Positions 3,904 through 64,000 of a stretch of 64,000 bases of DNA are shown piece after piece. A program made the translations under genes and the position numbers. Positions within the stretch are counted from its first letter, which is position 1, and each line of letters starts with the position of its first letter. The notes under the pieces are model-generated. The model did not search any database. It was not told the origin of the DNA and worked only from the letters and a program-made list of their open reading frames with translations. Source of the stretch: a phage; sequence record PZ445134.1; one strand, 5' to 3'.

Positions 3904-4895
3904 TATTGAACCTTATTAATATAAGTTAACAGCTCTTTAGTTTGTTCCCAACTGATGCACGCATCGGTAATGGAAACGCCATAGGACATATTATCAGAAA
4001 TTTTTTGATTTCCTTCATGTAGGAATGATTCTATCATAATTCCTTTGACCAAATCATTAGCTGCTAAATTTTTACCAATACCAATTTGATTGCTATAATA
4101 CCCATCAGCGTTTGCATGGCTACAGTCAACCATTACATAATGATTCAGACCTAATGCACTTGCTTTGTTAGAAGCTTCTTGAATATCAGAAGAATGATAG
4201 TTCGGGCCGTTAGTCCCGCCACGCAATACGATATGCGTATTCTGATTACCTTCAGCTTCAACAATGCCTACAGTACCATCGACGTCCATACCCATATACC
4301 GATGAGGCCAGGCGGCACTATACATCGCGTCTGTAGCTACTTTAATAGAACCATTGGTTGCGTTCTTGAAGCCTACGCACATCGGTAGACCTGAAGCAAT
4401 TTCACGATGTGTCTGACTTTCAGTCGTACGGGCGCCAATAGCAACCCATGAGAAAATACCAGAAAGATACTTAATCGTGAATGGGTCTAATACTTCAGTT
4501 GCTAATGGAAGTCCCATACGTAGAAGTTTACGACACAATGTTCGTGCAACTATAAGACCGTGGTTCATATCAAAACTTCCGTCAAGATATGGATCATTTA
4601 CAAGACCTTTCCAACCTACGGTAGTTCGAGGCTTTTCAAAATAAACGCGCATCACTAACAGAACATTAGGAAGACGAGTTTGAAGTTCAGCCAGACGTTT
4701 GCCATATTCAACAGCAGCAATAGGGTCATGAATTGAACAAGGACCTACAACAATAAGTTTGCGTGGGTCTTCACCGTTCATAATCGAATTAACTTGTTCG
4801 CGATGAGAAGCCACTTGTGATGCGTAAGCTTCCGACAAAGGAATAATCTCAGCCAGTTCTTTTGGAGAAATAAGTTTTCTGATGACAGGTAACAT
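3903..4895 (-). CDS. 3-deoxy-7-phosphoheptulonate (DAHP) synthase, class I AroG-type
   Basis: 330 aa; motifs RVYFEKPRTTVGWKGL and GARTTESQTHRE.ASGL are hallmark AroG/AroF segments; AAGGA SD; start/stop overlap with cd. Confidence 0.85.
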   Translation of the reverse strand: MLPVIRKLISPKELAEIIPLSEAYASQVASHREQVNSIMNGEDPRKLIVVGPCSIHDPIAAVEYGKRLAELQTRLPNVLLVMRVYFEKPRTTVGWKGLVNDPYLDGSFDMNHGLIVARTLCRKLLRMGLPLATEVLDPFTIKYLSGIFSWVAIGARTTESQTHREIASGLPMCVGFKNATNGSIKVATDAMYSAAWPHRYMGMDVDGTVGIVEAEGNQNTHIVLRGGTNGPNYHSSDIQEASNKASALGLNHYVMVDCSHANADGYYSNQIGIGKNLAANDLVKGIMIESFLHEGNQKISDNMSYGVSITDACISWEQTKELLTYINKVQ

Positions 4896-5015
4896 AACAA
4901 TCCTTAGGAGATATAAACAGATTCTGATTCAACAATACCTTTAACCGGATTAGACAGGCTAAGTTGGTAGTGCTCAGATTTATGACCATTCTCGATAGTA
5001 ATGAGATAACTCTCA

Positions 5016-5252
5016 TTATAGTGTTCCATATACTCGAGTTGCTTCAACAAGACCATCACTGCCTAATTTAAGATTAGTAATTTGGTCACCATCTTTAGGA
5101 TTAACGATTATGAGAAAAGAACGAGGAGATTCTTGAATAACTCGTAATGTTGCATCCTGGAAACGTTCAGACACTTTATTGATGAGTGCTTGAGCGAATT
5201 CTTTTACTTTAATCTGAAATTCGTGTACTGTAATTGGATTTTCACTTAGCAT
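5016..5252 (-). CDS. hypothetical protein, 78 aa
   Basis: Track ORF; early promoter 5281-5310 upstream. Confidence 0.5.
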   Translation of the reverse strand: MLSENPITVHEFQIKVKEFAQALINKVSERFQDATLRVIQESPRSFLIIVNPKDGDQITNLKLGSDGLVEATRVYGTL

Positions 5253-5280
5253 TTCGATTTCCTCATTTGTTGGTAGAGTT

Positions 5281-5310
5281 ATAGTATCACAACTCTACTG
5301 TGTTGTAAAC
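5281..5310 (-). promoter_or_regulatory. T4-type early promoter
   Basis: minus strand GTTTAC, 18 nt, TACTAT. Confidence 0.5.
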
Positions 5311-5586
5311 TTAAATTGCAAAACATTTAATTTCTTGTGAATCGAAATCAACCTCACATTGAATTACTAGATCAGCGTCAAGTCCAAACACAACAATCAC
5401 ATGAGCCGAGCTTGGCAACAGTGTAACAGACACAGAATCCACTTGGTCCGGCACCAGCGTATTCAAAACGTAAAGTAGTTCAGAGTGGATCTTAAGCTCG
5501 GTGGCCGTATCCGGCTTATCAAAGAAATGATTTGCGATAATCTGACTAAAAACTACCTTTACAATTTCAGAATATTTAGGGAACAT
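5311..5586 (-). CDS. hypothetical protein, 91 aa
   Basis: Track ORF in pseT-cd intergenic block. Confidence 0.5.
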   Translation of the reverse strand: MFPKYSEIVKVVFSQIIANHFFDKPDTATELKIHSELLYVLNTLVPDQVDSVSVTLLPSSAHVIVVFGLDADLVIQCEVDFDSQEIKCFAI

Positions 5587-5593
5587 AATTACC

Positions 5594-5818
5594 TCAGTGT
5601 ACAGTATTTACTTTAACTCGAACAACAAATTGCTCGGTCGGTTCGCCTACAGGAACAAACTCTACATGATATTCGCCTTTGTAACGAGTATTCAGGTCGT
5701 TACGAATTTCGGTAAGCTTGTTGATTAATGTAGAACTCATATTAAGTCCCACTAATTTACGAAGCATTTTGTATGCTTCATCTTCGATTTCACGATGTTT
5801 ATCGTACATAGTTTTCAT
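5594..5818 (-). CDS. hypothetical protein, 74 aa
   Basis: Track ORF. Confidence 0.5.
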   Translation of the reverse strand: MKTMYDKHREIEDEAYKMLRKLVGLNMSSTLINKLTEIRNDLNTRYKGEYHVEFVPVGEPTEQFVVRVKVNTVH

Positions 5819-5964
5819 TTAACCATTCAATTGCCTGGTCGACGTTATCAAATATACTGCCGTCCAACCATTCTTCATGTTCATAGTCCAGCACATCAAT
5901 ACCGAACCGTCCATTTACTAAAGGCCATACTACAAACAAATATTCTTTATGCTGTTCGATGGCC

Positions 5965-7511: not shown

Positions 7512-7735
7512 TATTTTACTAAAGATTCGATATACTCATGAAGAGCTTTAGTTGCTACTGCCCACTTATTCTGATATTCATTTTTCAGATTAGCACGAGA
7601 CTGAACTAACAAGCGGTCGTTAGTCGGAGGCAAAGATTCTAATCGTTGAATCTGACGGCCATAAATCATAGCCGCCATTTCAGAGTCATAGATAAGTCCT
7701 TTAAGGTATTCATGCTGTTCTTTAGTCATTGGCAT
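7511..7735 (-). CDS. hypothetical protein, 74 aa
   Basis: Track ORF. Confidence 0.5.
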   Translation of the reverse strand: MPMTKEQHEYLKGLIYDSEMAAMIYGRQIQRLESLPPTNDRLLVQSRANLKNEYQNKWAVATKALHEYIESLVK

Positions 7736-58406: not shown

Positions 58407-58598
58407 TTATCCTCTGAAATCAGCTTCAAAAACTTTCTCGTCATTAACAAATGCTTTAACTAATGCGTTGTTCACTTCAGCAAGTTGTACCGTAACCCAC
58501 TCGATTTCTTCGCGATCACCTGATAACATAATATCTTTAGTGAACATCTCGCCGCTTTTAAACCAACCTATAAAAGTAACTTTAGTTAATTTGCTCAT
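58407..58598 (-). CDS. hypothetical protein, 63 aa (Dmd-size, coupled to upstream Arr-like ORF)
   Basis: ATG 58598 overlaps stop of the 105-aa ORF (ATGA); size and map position near gene 41 recall T4 dmd, but sequence identity could not be verified. Confidence 0.4.
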   Translation of the reverse strand: MSKLTKVTFIGWFKSGEMFTKDIMLSGDREEIEWVTVQLAEVNNALVKAFVNDEKVFEADFRG

Positions 58599-58912
58599 AT
58601 TTCCTCGCAAAATGCCCATTCAGCGTGATAAACTGTAGCACCTTTAGTATCATTCATTTGAACTACGTCTACCGGAGAAATTACTCGATAGAGACGTGGT
58701 TCACCTCCGTAAGAGCGTGCTGCTCGTCCTGCATAAATCTTTGCTAAACCGATATCTTCAGTAAAGAATACCCGATCCAAGTTTTTCTTACGTCCAGTTT
58801 CAGACAGAACTCCTGTTTCTTCAGGAGGACAAAGCATGTTTTCGATGTTAGCTGAACTACTTGAACCGTGATAAAAAATCTTAAATTCTGCTTTACAATC
58901 AATGGTTTTCAT
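58595..58912 (-). CDS. small H-G-S motif protein, 105 aa; Arr/Tpt1-like ADP-ribosyltransferase fold candidate
   Basis: Motif series FYHGSSSS ... VFFTEDIGLAKIYAG ... YRVISPVDVV resembles the H-G-T/S, beta-strand and Y-x-V-x-P signature of Arr/KptA-clan enzymes; promoter 58939-58967. Confidence 0.4.
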   Translation of the reverse strand: MKTIDCKAEFKIFYHGSSSSANIENMLCPPEETGVLSETGRKKNLDRVFFTEDIGLAKIYAGRAARSYGGEPRLYRVISPVDVVQMNDTKGATVYHAEWAFCEEI

Positions 58913-58967: not shown

Positions 58968-59342
58968 TTAAAAACGTAATTTAGATACATCTACGTTGAT
59001 TTCGCTTTGGTTTGCGTCGTATGCAATTAAACGAACAGCTTTAGATGGGTCATTCAATGCATAGAAATGATGGAACATTGCTCGAACGATATCACCATTT
59101 ACGAGTTCTACCTGGATAGGAGAACCTTTTTCGAGTTGGAAATGTTCATAAGCTTTGATGGTTCGCAGATAATCAAGTTTTTGATTTCCGGCTCCAACAA
59201 TTTGTACGATACGTTTGCCCATGTTTTCCATACGAGATACAATAGTTTTAGGAGCAAGAATAACGTAGGTTGCCAGCGGAGAAACTACTTCAACAGTTGT
59301 GTTTTCGGTGATTGCAGTAAAAATTGCTTGAGACATATTCAT
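58968..59342 (-). CDS. hypothetical protein, 124 aa
   Basis: Track ORF; promoter 59372-59401. Confidence 0.5.
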   Translation of the reverse strand: MNMSQAIFTAITENTTVEVVSPLATYVILAPKTIVSRMENMGKRIVQIVGAGNQKLDYLRTIKAYEHFQLEKGSPIQVELVNGDIVRAMFHHFYALNDPSKAVRLIAYDANQSEINVDVSKLRF

Positions 59343-60882: not shown

Positions 60883-61242
60883 TTAAAAGAATTTAAATTT
60901 TTTCTTGGTCCGTTCATTAAAAGCTTGTTGTACTTGCATTGTAACACATTTTTCAACATGTGGTGCAAGTTCTGCTTTTCTGTCCTGGTCAAGAACTGCA
61001 AAGTCCATTACGATTTTACCATCAACCCAGTCTAGTTTTGTAATATAGACTATATGATGAGAACCATCTTCAAGTGTAATCAGAATCTCTTGAATGACAT
61101 TTTCCATTGCTGAACGGATAATTTTAAGAGATTCATTAAACACTCGTTCTTTGCGAATGTCTTCCCCTTCCGAAGAAGGGGATTCATCAACGATTTCTAG
61201 ATTTAAATCATCGAGATTATTCATCGAAATCTTCCATTTCAT
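60883..61242 (-). CDS. 40: gp40 head-vertex assembly protein (probable)
   Basis: Map position between 41 and uvsX; start set at ATG 61242 (track begins at TTG 61245; alternative ATG at 61224 has a better SD). Confidence 0.55.
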   Translation of the reverse strand: MKWKISMNNLDDLNLEIVDESPSSEGEDIRKERVFNESLKIIRSAMENVIQEILITLEDGSHHIVYITKLDWVDGKIVMDFAVLDQDRKAELAPHVEKCVTMQVQQAFNERTKKKFKFF

Positions 61243-62389
61243 CAAGGTCGTTTTCTATATCTGCTGCAGACGGAGCATCAGAAGTTTTAACCGGAACTTT
61301 AGTTGTTGCTTTGCAATTAATAAGGTCATTAACAGCATCATCAACTTCTTTAATAGAAGAGATAGCACCTAGTTTATATTTAGTTTCAATTGCATCTCGG
61401 AAAGGTTTGTGTTTAAACAACGGCCCCCAGAATTCTACACAATCAGTAGCTTTAGCACGCCATGATTTTTCTTCACGAATCATTTCGCCTGTTTCTTCGT
61501 CAAGGAATTCACGAGCATACCAACCAGCTTTAGGCTTAACTACAAAACCAATTTCAGTTGCCATTTCTAACAAGCCACTGAATGGGTCGATACCACCATC
61601 AAAATTAACAGTGATCGGGAAAGTAGATTTTTCTTTAACGGTGCGAGATTTTTCTGCTTTCAACGTGAAGTCATAACCGGTCAATTCTGTACCTTCTTTA
61701 ACCTGACGTTTAGAGATAAAAAATACCGTGTTGGCAGAATAAAGAATACCTGTACCACCACCCATAATCTCTTTAGGATACAATCCGCCAATTTCCATTG
61801 CTGTATGGTTAATTGCAACACATGGAATATCTTTAATAGTCAGATAAGGAGTCACAATGCGGAACAGAGATTTAAGTGCCTTAGCACGAGACATATCACC
61901 TACGACTTTCTCGTTCAATGCATCTTCAGTTTCTTTCTTAGATGCAGTATTACCGATTGAATCGATAAAGATAATAACTTTATCACCGCGTTCAATCGCG
62001 TCAAGCTGATTAGTCATATCAACTTTAAGTTGTTCGACAGATTGAATCGGAGTATGAACTACACGGTCTAAATCAACACCCATTGAACGAAAATAAGATT
62101 CTGAAGCACCAAATTCTGAATCATAGAACAAACAAATTGCATCTTTATATTTCTTCATATATGCTGCAACCATGGTCAGCCCAAACAACGTTTTAAAGTG
62201 TTTAGAAGGAGCAGCAAAAATAGTTAAGCCTGATTGCAACCCGGCATTCAGTGCACCACCTAATGCAATATTCAACATCGGAATACGAGTAGGGACTTCA
62301 TCACGATTATTAAACAGCTTAGACTTAGTCAAGTCTGCAGTCATTTTAGAAGTAGAAGCTTTAATCAGACGAGATTTTAAATCAGACAT
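61217..62389 (-). CDS. uvsX: UvsX recombinase (RecA-like)
   Basis: 390 aa; matches recalled T4 UvsX (MSDLKSRLIKASTSK...FYDSEFG...REFLDEETGEMIREEKSWRAK). Confidence 0.93.
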   Translation of the reverse strand: MSDLKSRLIKASTSKMTADLTKSKLFNNRDEVPTRIPMLNIALGGALNAGLQSGLTIFAAPSKHFKTLFGLTMVAAYMKKYKDAICLFYDSEFGASESYFRSMGVDLDRVVHTPIQSVEQLKVDMTNQLDAIERGDKVIIFIDSIGNTASKKETEDALNEKVVGDMSRAKALKSLFRIVTPYLTIKDIPCVAINHTAMEIGGLYPKEIMGGGTGILYSANTVFFISKRQVKEGTELTGYDFTLKAEKSRTVKEKSTFPITVNFDGGIDPFSGLLEMATEIGFVVKPKAGWYAREFLDEETGEMIREEKSWRAKATDCVEFWGPLFKHKPFRDAIETKYKLGAISSIKEVDDAVNDLINCKATTKVPVKTSDAPSAADIENDLDEMEDFDE

Positions 62390-62488
62390 TGTATTTTTCC
62401 ATAGGCATCATTATATTTTACTCATGTTTAAAAGATAAGACGATTATATACTAAGGGCTATACAGCATTTAAAACTTTAAACAGGCTC

Positions 62489-63037
62489 TTAACGAGCCCA
62501 TTTGATAATTTCTGTAATCAAATTATTACGTTCGCTTGCATTAAATCCTATAACTTTGTTAGCACCATCATGATTAAGTAATTGATACGTTTGGATTTTG
62601 TTATGAATTGCAAACTCTTCAAAATATGAAATGACTGTATTAAAACCGAATGAAGACAAAGTAATAAGGTCGTCTTCAAAACTTTCAGTCATTTCGTTAC
62701 GTGTTAAAATAATTGTGAACACATCATGGTTTTGGCAAAGACGAACATAATCCTGTTCATAAACGTCAAGAACCGAGTCCACATCTTGTCGAATACGTCC
62801 ATAAACCCAGTTACTAATATATCCACGGTCTAACAGATAAATCTTAGTAGGGTCTAAATAATTCAACATCGTTTCGAAACAGCCAACTTCATTTCGAGAT
62901 TTAACATCGAAACGTCCATCAACTGTTCGTTTAGGGAAATCAATCTTTACATATCTTTCACTAATTTCCATTATGTCATTAATGAAAGTTGTTTTACCAG
63001 CATTATCCGGGCCATCTACTAAAATAATTTTAGCCAT
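62489..63037 (-). CDS. P-loop nucleotide kinase-like protein, 182 aa
   Basis: Walker A MAKIILVDGPDNAGKTT and downstream LLDRGYISNWVYG (DRY/DRH-like) as in thymidylate/deoxynucleoside kinase families. Confidence 0.5.
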   Translation of the reverse strand: MAKIILVDGPDNAGKTTFINDIMEISERYVKIDFPKRTVDGRFDVKSRNEVGCFETMLNYLDPTKIYLLDRGYISNWVYGRIRQDVDSVLDVYEQDYVRLCQNHDVFTIILTRNEMTESFEDDLITLSSFGFNTVISYFEEFAIHNKIQTYQLLNHDGANKVIGFNASERNNLITEIIKWAR

Positions 63038-63038
63038 T

Positions 63039-63938
63039 TTATTCCTCGATTACGACATCTTCATATTTAGGTATATTATACGGTGAAGAAATTAAAGCAT
63101 TAAAGTAGATGAACTCACCAAGACCTGGATGGAATACTTCTTCAGGATTTTCGAAATATTGAATCTTCGGTCTTCCTTTAAGAATTTGATAGTACTCAGT
63201 TTTAGTTGGTTTAAAAATTCGAATCAGCGCTTCTTCAGGATACTTATTTCTGTCGAAGCTATTATTTGGATCGGTTATATAAAGCGGTTGACCTAATTGA
63301 ATTGCACATTCAACCACTTGTTCAAAACGATAACACGGGTCACTAATTCGAAATGGATGAAAAATACCATCTAGATGAATAGGAGCCAAATCACCTACAA
63401 GACGCTGCATGATGGAAGGACGTATAACTTTCTGGGTTACGATAATCTTATTACCATCTGCACCAGCGTTAACCAGCACTTCTTTTTGACGTTCATTCAA
63501 CACAGTAGTTTGAAGTGAACGATTAACCGACAACATGTCGGTTTTTAAGAATTCGTCAATGTAAAAACGTGGTTTATTAGGGTCTGCAGTGATATTGAAA
63601 TTGAATTCTACATCAAAAGCGCCGTCATATCCAGTGATATCTGTGATTAGAAAATCACAATCATAATAAGAAATTAATGAATCAACCACAAATTCATTTT
63701 CAGACCAGAAATATTTACGAGTGTTATACGCGTTATCTTTATACCATAATGGAACAAACTTAAATTCTGGGAAAAGACGTTCGCATTCTTTAATATCAGA
63801 TGCATTACGTGGATATGTAATCACATCACCCGGATTAGCACGGTGCAAATGAAGTTGGAAGTTGCCATCCTTAAGGATAGCATACTGTCCAGTTTCATAA
63901 GACCGCATACTCAAGATAGGTACGCGGAAAATAGCCAT
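63039..63938 (-). CDS. hypothetical protein, 299 aa
   Basis: Track ORF; lies where T4 carries beta-gt; no similarity to recalled T4 beta-glucosyltransferase. Confidence 0.55.
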   Translation of the reverse strand: MAIFRVPILSMRSYETGQYAILKDGNFQLHLHRANPGDVITYPRNASDIKECERLFPEFKFVPLWYKDNAYNTRKYFWSENEFVVDSLISYYDCDFLITDITGYDGAFDVEFNFNITADPNKPRFYIDEFLKTDMLSVNRSLQTTVLNERQKEVLVNAGADGNKIIVTQKVIRPSIMQRLVGDLAPIHLDGIFHPFRISDPCYRFEQVVECAIQLGQPLYITDPNNSFDRNKYPEEALIRIFKPTKTEYYQILKGRPKIQYFENPEEVFHPGLGEFIYFNALISSPYNIPKYEDVVIEE

Positions 63939-64000
63939 TAGTCAAGGAATCCTTTAACATAATCAAAATCACGTTCAAACACATGGGCACTTACCATGGT
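63938..64000 (-). CDS. C-terminal end of an upstream gene (partial; 5' part outside window)
   Basis: Open minus frame ending ...TMVSAHVFERDFDYVKGFLD with TAA overlapping the next ATG (TAATG). Confidence 0.3.
   Translation of the reverse strand, partial: TMVSAHVFERDFDYVKGFLD

Follow-up and report, generated by a model that had tools for sequence, protein, structure and literature searches.

The stretch of phage DNA considered here (sequence record PZ445134.1; 64,000 nucleotides, referred to as the window) carries two open reading frames (ORFs) of 182 and 299 amino acids (aa) directly upstream of uvsX (61217-62389), gene 40 (Pfam Phage_head_chap) and gene 41, at the positions given for them in the original prediction (Table 1). 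The start of the 299-aa ORF overlaps the stop codon of a gene for a thymidylate-synthase (TS) homolog (TAATG), and the gap from the stop of the 299-aa ORF to the start codon (ATG) of the 182-aa ORF is a single nucleotide; the three genes are predicted to be translationally coupled and inherited together. Judged by their sequences, the two ORFs are near-identical counterparts of gp45 and gp46:47 of phage RB69, which have already been named in a published pathway. They are likely part of the Mosigvirus pathway by which arabinosylated 5-hydroxycytosine takes the place of cytosine in virion DNA, and likely act there in the roles proposed below, because RB69 orthology, gene order, published assignments, the GT-B and thymidylate-kinase folds, kinase motifs and gene linkage all point to this pathway.

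Table 1. Position and assignment of the genes discussed in the text
Feature	Position	Strand	Assignment
182-aa ORF, ATG start	62489-63037	-	Predicted thymidylate-kinase-fold P-loop protein; ortholog of RB69 ORF045c (gp45)
299-aa ORF, ATG start	63039-63938	-	Predicted GT-B-fold glycosyltransferase; ortholog of RB69 ORF046c+047c (gp46:47)
TS homolog, 3′ end (last 20 codons and stop)	63938-64000	-	Counterpart of T4 gene 42
Second glycosyltransferase, 366 aa	41687-42787	-	Between rIIA and topoisomerase gene 39; counterpart of RB69 ORF003c (gp3)

Between bases 61200 and 64000 the window is 98-99% identical at the DNA level to many Mosigvirus (RB69-like) genomes, among them those of phages AV112, HY126, ST0, phi25-307 and NRG-P0074, and it is classified here as a Mosigvirus genome. 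In both NRG-P0074 and RB69, uvsX is followed by genes for a 182-aa ‘thymidylate kinase’, a 299-aa ‘glycosyltransferase’ and a thymidylate-synthase homolog, next by a small ORF, and then by genes for a U32-peptidase-like protein, a HAD-like protein (labelled ‘phosphoheptose isomerase’ in the NRG-P0074 annotation), a bifunctional nucleoside triphosphate (NTP)-transferase/kinase, an arabinose-5-phosphate isomerase and DNA polymerase. The genes for synthesis of uridine diphosphate (UDP)-arabinofuranose, which encode the arabinose-5-phosphate isomerase, the bifunctional kinase/uridylyltransferase and the HAD phosphatase, lie past the end of the window at position 64000; they are present in these relatives, which share 98-99% identity with the window over the compared region. 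The order at the same locus in phage T4 is uvsX, segA, b-gt, 42 (NC_000866). The original prediction had placed the two ORFs where T4 carries b-gt and gene 42, and this holds for the segA/b-gt position, which is the only one that they take, but not for gene 42, since the last 20 codons of its retained counterpart are present at 63941-64000.

The 182-aa protein is 98% identical in amino acid sequence to RB69ORF045c, which likewise lies between uvsX and the TS homolog, and the 299-aa protein is 99.0% identical to RB69ORF047c and RB69ORF046c read as one, with the same synteny. The pairs can be regarded as the same genes in sister genomes, with the difference that the 299-aa ORF is intact in the window and split in the RB69 GenBank record. 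DNA alignment of that record (AY303349) against window bases 63039-63938 revealed one extra T (GTAG-T-GTGA) at gene nucleotide 545 (segment position 7545), and the RB69 gene is divided into ORF047c and ORF046c because of this single nucleotide. The unsplit 299-aa ORF is found in the window and in about 340 other phage genomes, and the split has been put down to sequencing error by Lee et al. (NAR 2026, PMC13326640). Both ORFs are considered to be real genes rather than chance ORFs because homologs of each are widespread, their alignments contain many invariant columns, and each matches a PHROGs family. A tblastn search of a phage collection gave 349 records for the 299-aa protein and 344 for the 182-aa protein, at identities down to about 35-45%, and a metagenome protein search yielded 138 and 27 cluster representatives, respectively; the PHROGs matches were to phrog_3891 (4e-156) and phrog_761 (7e-45).

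With regard to the 299-aa protein, family searches were uninformative. No match was obtained in Pfam (E ≤ 1) or NCBIfam (E ≤ 0.01), including the Glycos_transf_1 and Glyco_trans_4 families, a comparison of the family profile with PDB sequences returned noise only and hence no solved structure, and PHROG 3891, to which the protein belongs, is listed as of unknown function. The AlphaFold2 (AF2) model is confident (predicted local distance difference test score, pLDDT, 94.5) and has the two Rossmann-like domains and interdomain cleft of GT-B glycosyltransferases. A Foldseek search, which the original prediction had proposed, returned MshA and UDP-N-acetylglucosamine (UDP-GlcNAc) 2-epimerases (E about 3e-6) and supports a glycosyltransferase fold. 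Most of its nearest structural neighbours are retaining GT4 enzymes, and sequence identity to retaining GT4-type GT-B enzymes (sucrose-phosphate synthase 6kih, BshA, PimA and MshA) is 7-12%. Unlike these enzymes, the 299-aa protein has a compact N-terminal domain with the family-specific invariant motifs SMRS, KDGN and PFRxxD. In an alignment of 39 sequences of the family, the invariant residues are S10-M-R-S13, K23-D-G-N26, R33, D100 and Y126-I-D128, together with F193/P195-F-R197/D200, T222/P224-N225, K246 and H270-P-G272. In this alignment, the invariant R197 and K246 are candidates for the donor-binding Arg/Lys of the C-terminal domain, a Glu or Asp stands at position 275 after the invariant H270-P-G, and the second Glu of the EX7E motif is absent.

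These features suggest that the 299-aa protein, which the original prediction had listed as unknown, is a glycosyltransferase. It shares with T4 beta-glucosyltransferase the genomic slot beside the gene 42 counterpart and the GT-B fold, and, like the T4 enzyme, it would glycosylate the C5 substituent of cytosine from a UDP-sugar donor. The original prediction was right in finding no similarity to beta-gt, as a profile comparison of the two proteins gave a probability of 0.4% and no detectable homology. On the strength of the model, the 299-aa protein is thus assigned as a glycosyltransferase that takes the place of beta-gt and would be its functional counterpart, and not as a recognisable derivative of it. 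It is probably a compact UDP-sugar-dependent GT-B enzyme, predicted to place the first alpha-linked D-arabinofuranose (Araf) on the 5-OH of 5-hydroxycytosine, and its likeness to mostly retaining enzymes would fit the alpha linkage of the base-proximal arabinose. The RB69 counterpart, RB69p046:47, was named ‘arabinosyltransferase 1’ on structural grounds (Lee et al., NAR 2026, PMC13326640).

The 182-aa protein had been described as a Walker A protein with a DRY-like motif and likeness to thymidylate or deoxynucleoside kinases, and this description was borne out by a Walker A motif (GPDNAGKT, residues 9-16), by LDRGY at residues 69-73 and by a thymidylate-kinase fold, thymidylate kinases being its closest folds. 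The nearest known proteins are thymidylate kinase (type II-like) and the T4 gp1 deoxynucleoside-monophosphate (dNMP) kinase. Comparison of the family profile with PDB sequences gave matches confined to the P-loop and no solved structure. An hhalign comparison with human TMPK (reference sequence identical to PDB 2xx3) gave a probability of 93.5% over an alignment that spans residues 3-40 only; it pairs GPDNAGKT with GVDRAGKS and FPKR with FPER, so that D11, N12 and K15 correspond to D15, R16 and K19 of the human enzyme, in which the P-loop Asp contacts the 3′-OH. A MAFFT alignment further places D70-R71 on D96-R97, S75 on S101 and Y79 on F105. All 23 homologs compared share the TMPK-aligned residues as well as R113, D122 and D123 of the presumed lid. 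The protein thereby retains the P-loop Lys/Thr, the P-loop Asp, FPxR, DR, a candidate Arg for the lid and, at the TMPK F105 position, an aromatic residue, and it has the P-loop NMP-kinase fold with P-loop, DR(Y/H) and phosphate-binding Arg after strand 2 that mark dTMP kinases.

Because the TMPK motifs align and are invariant, the machinery for phosphotransfer appears complete, and a deoxynucleotide appears to be the acceptor. The protein probably acts as an ATP-dependent deoxynucleoside-monophosphate kinase, and we take its predicted substrate to be 5-hydroxy-deoxycytidine monophosphate (5hodCMP) or a derivative, so that it would feed the modified nucleotide to the triphosphate. RB69p045 has been listed as a ‘nucleotide kinase’ on structural grounds in Table 1 of Lee et al. 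(PMC13326640); the term is confined to that table, and the kinase role of RB69p045 is not discussed in the main text. Papers citing He et al. 2026 or Mahler et al. 2025 say nothing on the 182-aa kinase.

The third gene of the group is represented in the window by its last 20 codons only. Bases 63941-64000 translate to TMVSAHVFERDFDYVKGFLD, followed by the stop, and the NRG-P0074 TS homolog ends in exactly these residues. The NRG-P0074 protein matches PDB entries 9iqc, 9ir2 and 9iqu and carries the signature RSQN...QLD (D169N and N177D in E. coli ThyA numbering), whereas T4 gp42 has RSND...FRND; the positions of this 5hodCMP-synthase signature (169 and 177) fall beyond the end of the window. 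In RB69 and HY126 the TS homolog is a flavin-dependent 5-hydroxy-dCMP synthase. The 366-aa glycosyltransferase (GT) next to rIIA, which adjoins a GyrB-like 605-aa protein, matches PDB entries 9iqz and 9ir0 (‘phage HY126 glycosyltransferase’) over its full length (phmmer E = 3e-251), and its RB69 counterpart ORF003c/gp3 has been proposed as ‘beta-arabinosyltransferase 2’. That the 299-aa and 366-aa GTs might be paralogs was considered and rejected at the sequence level (BLASTP E = 3.2).

The presence of arabinose in RB69 DNA was described by Thomas et al. (Viruses 2018), who implicated ORF003c beside rIIA and a gene module flanked by uvsX and DNA polymerase. Mono- and di-arabinosylated 5-hydroxycytosine has since been shown to take the place of all cytosine in RB69 DNA (Lee et al., NAR 2026, PMC13326640), the modified base being beta-D-Araf-(1-3)-alpha-D-Araf-O5-dC; arabinosyl-5-hydroxy-dC in virion DNA has been demonstrated for RB69 and phage NP. 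The original prediction of a non-T4 modification pathway that includes the rIIA-adjacent GT therefore agrees with published work, in which the DNA of the RB69 group carries arabinosylated 5-hydroxycytosine and not glucosyl-hydroxymethylcytosine (PMC13326640). Conversion of dCMP to 5-hydroxy-dCMP by the RB69 TS homolog gp48, with O2 and flavin, was confirmed experimentally, the RB69 gp1-type kinase gp159 phosphorylates 5hodCMP in vitro, and gp48 and gp159 together suffice for 5hodC to appear in E. coli DNA (PMC13326640). According to the summary of He et al. 2026 in the same paper, AfhE and AfhF of HY126 make UDP-arabinofuranose, AfhE, which has an NTP-transferase domain, being the UDP-arabinose pyrophosphorylase, and the hydroxylase structure has been solved. 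In the scheme proposed here, the TS homolog would convert dCMP to 5hodCMP and the cluster enzymes would make UDP-Araf, as both have been demonstrated to do in relatives. The 299-aa GT-B enzyme is then predicted to add the first alpha-Araf, the rIIA-adjacent 366-aa GT would probably add the second sugar, and the 182-aa kinase would phosphorylate a 5-hydroxy-dCMP-type nucleotide.

Linkage of the genes for the TS homolog, the GT and the kinase extends well beyond the Mosigviruses. Broken down by host genus, GT and kinase records in the phage collection agree exactly or nearly so, with 177 and 177 for Escherichia, 57 and 57 for Acinetobacter, and 15 and 15 for Shigella, and GT homologs in Acinetobacter and Shewanella phages share 45-47% identity with the 299-aa protein. 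Shewanella phage Thanatos has a TS homolog (TH1_062), a GT (TH1_063) and a 186-aa ORF (TH1_064) joined by 4-nt overlaps. In two distant metagenomic phage contigs, a kinase homolog of 181-182 aa (29-30% identity, E = 1e-19) follows a GT homolog (about 37-39% identity) and overlaps it; the TS homolog lies directly before the GT in one contig, with a Flavodoxin_2-family gene just upstream of TS, and about 1 kb upstream of the GT in the other, with three small ORFs between. Rhizobium phage RL38J1 (Pootjesviridae) encodes a TS homolog (216), a GT (215) and a P-loop protein (214), with a gp1-like dNMP kinase (219) nearby, and its GT 215 matches the 299-aa family with an hhalign probability of 99.2%. 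In the Escherichia phage MX01 (Dhakavirus; segment 1773-3894) the kinase, TS and GT genes are contiguous in that order with 4-nt overlaps, and the kinase and GT are about 37% and 67% identical to the window proteins; the MX01 kinase would have either diverged much faster or been exchanged. Among the homologs listed, going by length, there are no GT-kinase fusion proteins. Adjacency of TS homolog, GT and kinase is conserved, but a fixed order is not, and the idea that gene order reflects pathway order is weakened by MX01, in which the kinase precedes the TS homolog.

The same arrangement is found with different sugars. Kinase-like and GT genes stand beside a hydroxylase-type TS homolog in Acinetobacter phage DLP3 (gp78/gp79), Thanatos (TH1_064/TH1_063) and RL38J1 (gp214/gp215), but the DNA of DLP3 carries tri-arabinose, that of Thanatos one pentose, and that of RL38J1 hexoses (galactose/glucose) and not arabinose (PMC13326640 Table 1). 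Because RL38J1 has other sugars and its own gp1-like kinase, the 182-aa kinase appears to go with the 5-hydroxycytosine nucleotide and the primary GT rather than with arabinose, and the presence of a gp1-type kinase in RL38J1 argues against the 182-aa kinase as a simple stand-in for gp1.

Several observations near these loci stand apart from the linkage itself. On contig Ga0643544_0000138 (4739-7594) the Flavodoxin_2-family gene directly precedes those for the TS homolog, the GT and the kinase. As a flavin reductase would suit a flavin-dependent dCMP hydroxylase, the four genes may form a self-contained module. Gene 214 of RL38J1 has PR in place of the DR motif of the Mosigvirus kinase (genes 214 and 219 lie at segment 684-1247 and 4484-5119). 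In Thanatos-1 (segment 7908-10308) a uvsX-like gene seems to be split in two by a gene for a Seg-like GIY-YIG homing endonuclease and a small ORF.

A number of findings weigh against the proposed roles of the two proteins. The 182-aa protein scores far below the cut-offs of the dTMP-kinase models, with 12.3 bits against Pfam PF02223 (cut-off 27) and 16.8 bits against NCBIfam TIGR00041 (cut-off 83.25). Its base-recognition residue could not be mapped, as the MAFFT alignment is ambiguous at the base-binding helix, and the match of RL38J1 gene 214 to its profile is weak (probability 42%). The requirement for a second kinase is unexplained, given that gp159 already phosphorylates 5hodCMP. When GTs cloned from DLP3 were purified and assayed one by one, none arabinosylated 5hoC-DNA with UDP-Araf or UDP-arabinopyranose (UDP-Arap) as donor (PMC13326640), and the report that the Thanatos ortholog TH1_063 makes UDP-xylose is discordant with a transferase role. 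The literature searched, which did not extend to He et al. 2026 and Mahler et al. 2025 themselves, contains no direct enzymology for either protein.

The order of events at the first sugar bears on one alternative, in which the 299-aa GT would arabinosylate free 5hodCMP to alpha-Araf-5hodCMP before replication and the 182-aa protein would be the dedicated kinase for this product. A gp1-type kinase may not accept the bulky arabinoside, the polymerase would bring in the first sugar, and later sugars would be added on DNA. The experiments of Lee et al. do not distinguish arabinosylation of the mononucleotide from a post-replicative first step, and the inactivity of single GTs on 5hoC-DNA is consistent with the former (PMC13326640). 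A role of this kind would also account for the co-inheritance of a TMK-like kinase with the GT and TS homolog in spite of a gp1-type kinase (RB69 gp159, RL38J1 gene 219), and would agree with the tight coupling of the genes and with the order TS, GT, kinase shared by Mosigvirus, Thanatos, RL38J1 and the two metagenomic contigs, although MX01, with kinase, TS, GT, shows that this order is not universal. The GT family is uniformly acidic (median isoelectric point 5.1), a weak argument against DNA binding, as UvsX is acidic as well. 5-Hydroxycytosine in DNA is a substrate of the E. coli glycosylases Nth and Nei of host base-excision repair, so that its exposure without a sugar would be risky for the phage. 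However, no glycosylated deoxynucleoside triphosphate is known as a precursor of phage replication. Moreover, gp48 and gp159 put unglycosylated 5hodC into DNA and later sugars go on at the DNA level, the third sugar of DLP3 being added there by gp76 and gp77 (PMC13326640). On balance this order of events seems unlikely; if it were true, replication would proceed with a pre-glycosylated dCTP analogue and 5-hydroxycytosine would never be exposed in phage DNA.

The two remaining alternatives assign a different activity to one protein each. Brandt et al. (PMC12838424) detected UDP-xylose by liquid chromatography-tandem mass spectrometry (LC-MS/MS) when purified TH1_063 was incubated with uridine triphosphate (UTP), xylose-1-phosphate and pyrophosphatase, and saw no transfer to plasmid DNA, dCMP, dCTP or cytosine, all four of which are acceptors that lack the 5-OH. 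TH1_063 (4986-5888 of the Thanatos-1 segment) is an ortholog of the 299-aa protein, being 47.5% identical to it in Thanatos-2 and likewise placed after TS in Thanatos-1, and on this basis the 299-aa protein could be a UDP-pentose pyrophosphorylase that makes the donor, with transfer carried out by another protein. Such an activity is at odds with the GT-B fold and with conservation of the family in the hexose-using RL38J1, the control in the Thanatos assay was a no-enzyme reaction that leaves room for a co-purified E. coli enzyme (PMC12838424), and the cluster has a separate enzyme with an NTP-transferase domain (AfhE in HY126, as summarised in PMC13326640); a pyrophosphorylase is scarcely credible. 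The ‘thymidylate kinase’ label on many GenBank records and on phrog_761, and the closeness of the fold to thymidylate kinases, would be in keeping with a 182-aa protein that works as an ordinary thymidylate kinase, provides dTDP to an AT-rich genome and has no specific role in cytosine modification. Yet its scores of 12-17 bits against the dTMP-kinase models fall short of the cut-offs (27 and 83 in Pfam and NCBIfam), its gene co-occurs near-strictly with, and adjoins, those for the GT and a hydroxylase-type TS homolog across virus families, and T4, whose gp1 already phosphorylates dTMP, has no such gene at the locus. An ordinary thymidylate kinase is accordingly judged very improbable, and a place for both proteins in the arabinosylation pathway is preferred.

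RB69-like phages depart from the T4 scheme of hydroxymethylcytosine and glucose in that dCMP is hydroxylated directly and arabinofuranose is attached. This changes which restriction, CRISPR and glycosylase defences are evaded or triggered, and is relevant to the choice of therapeutic phages. The pathway is already in the literature (2018, 2025-2026), and the window adds one more genome to a known group; what is of remaining interest is the biochemistry of the GT-kinase pair, the role of a TMK-like kinase beside a gp1-type kinase, and whether the first sugar is added to the nucleotide or to DNA.

A scan of bases 61000-64000 for sigma-70-like promoters and intrinsic terminators gave a yield no higher than that of shuffled sequence. 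Between the kinase stop and the uvsX start (62440-62475, minus strand) lies the sequence aaATGCTGtat, followed 12 nt later by TATAAT, which resembles a T4 MotA-box middle promoter; the sigma-70 scan gave nothing at this site, and no MotA-specific test was made. Elsewhere in the window, between dmd and gene 41, there are two ORFs of 105 and 124 aa (58595-58912 and 58968-59342, both on the minus strand). They have no Pfam match and no counterpart annotated there in T4, and are the positional counterparts of RB69ORF040c and 041c.

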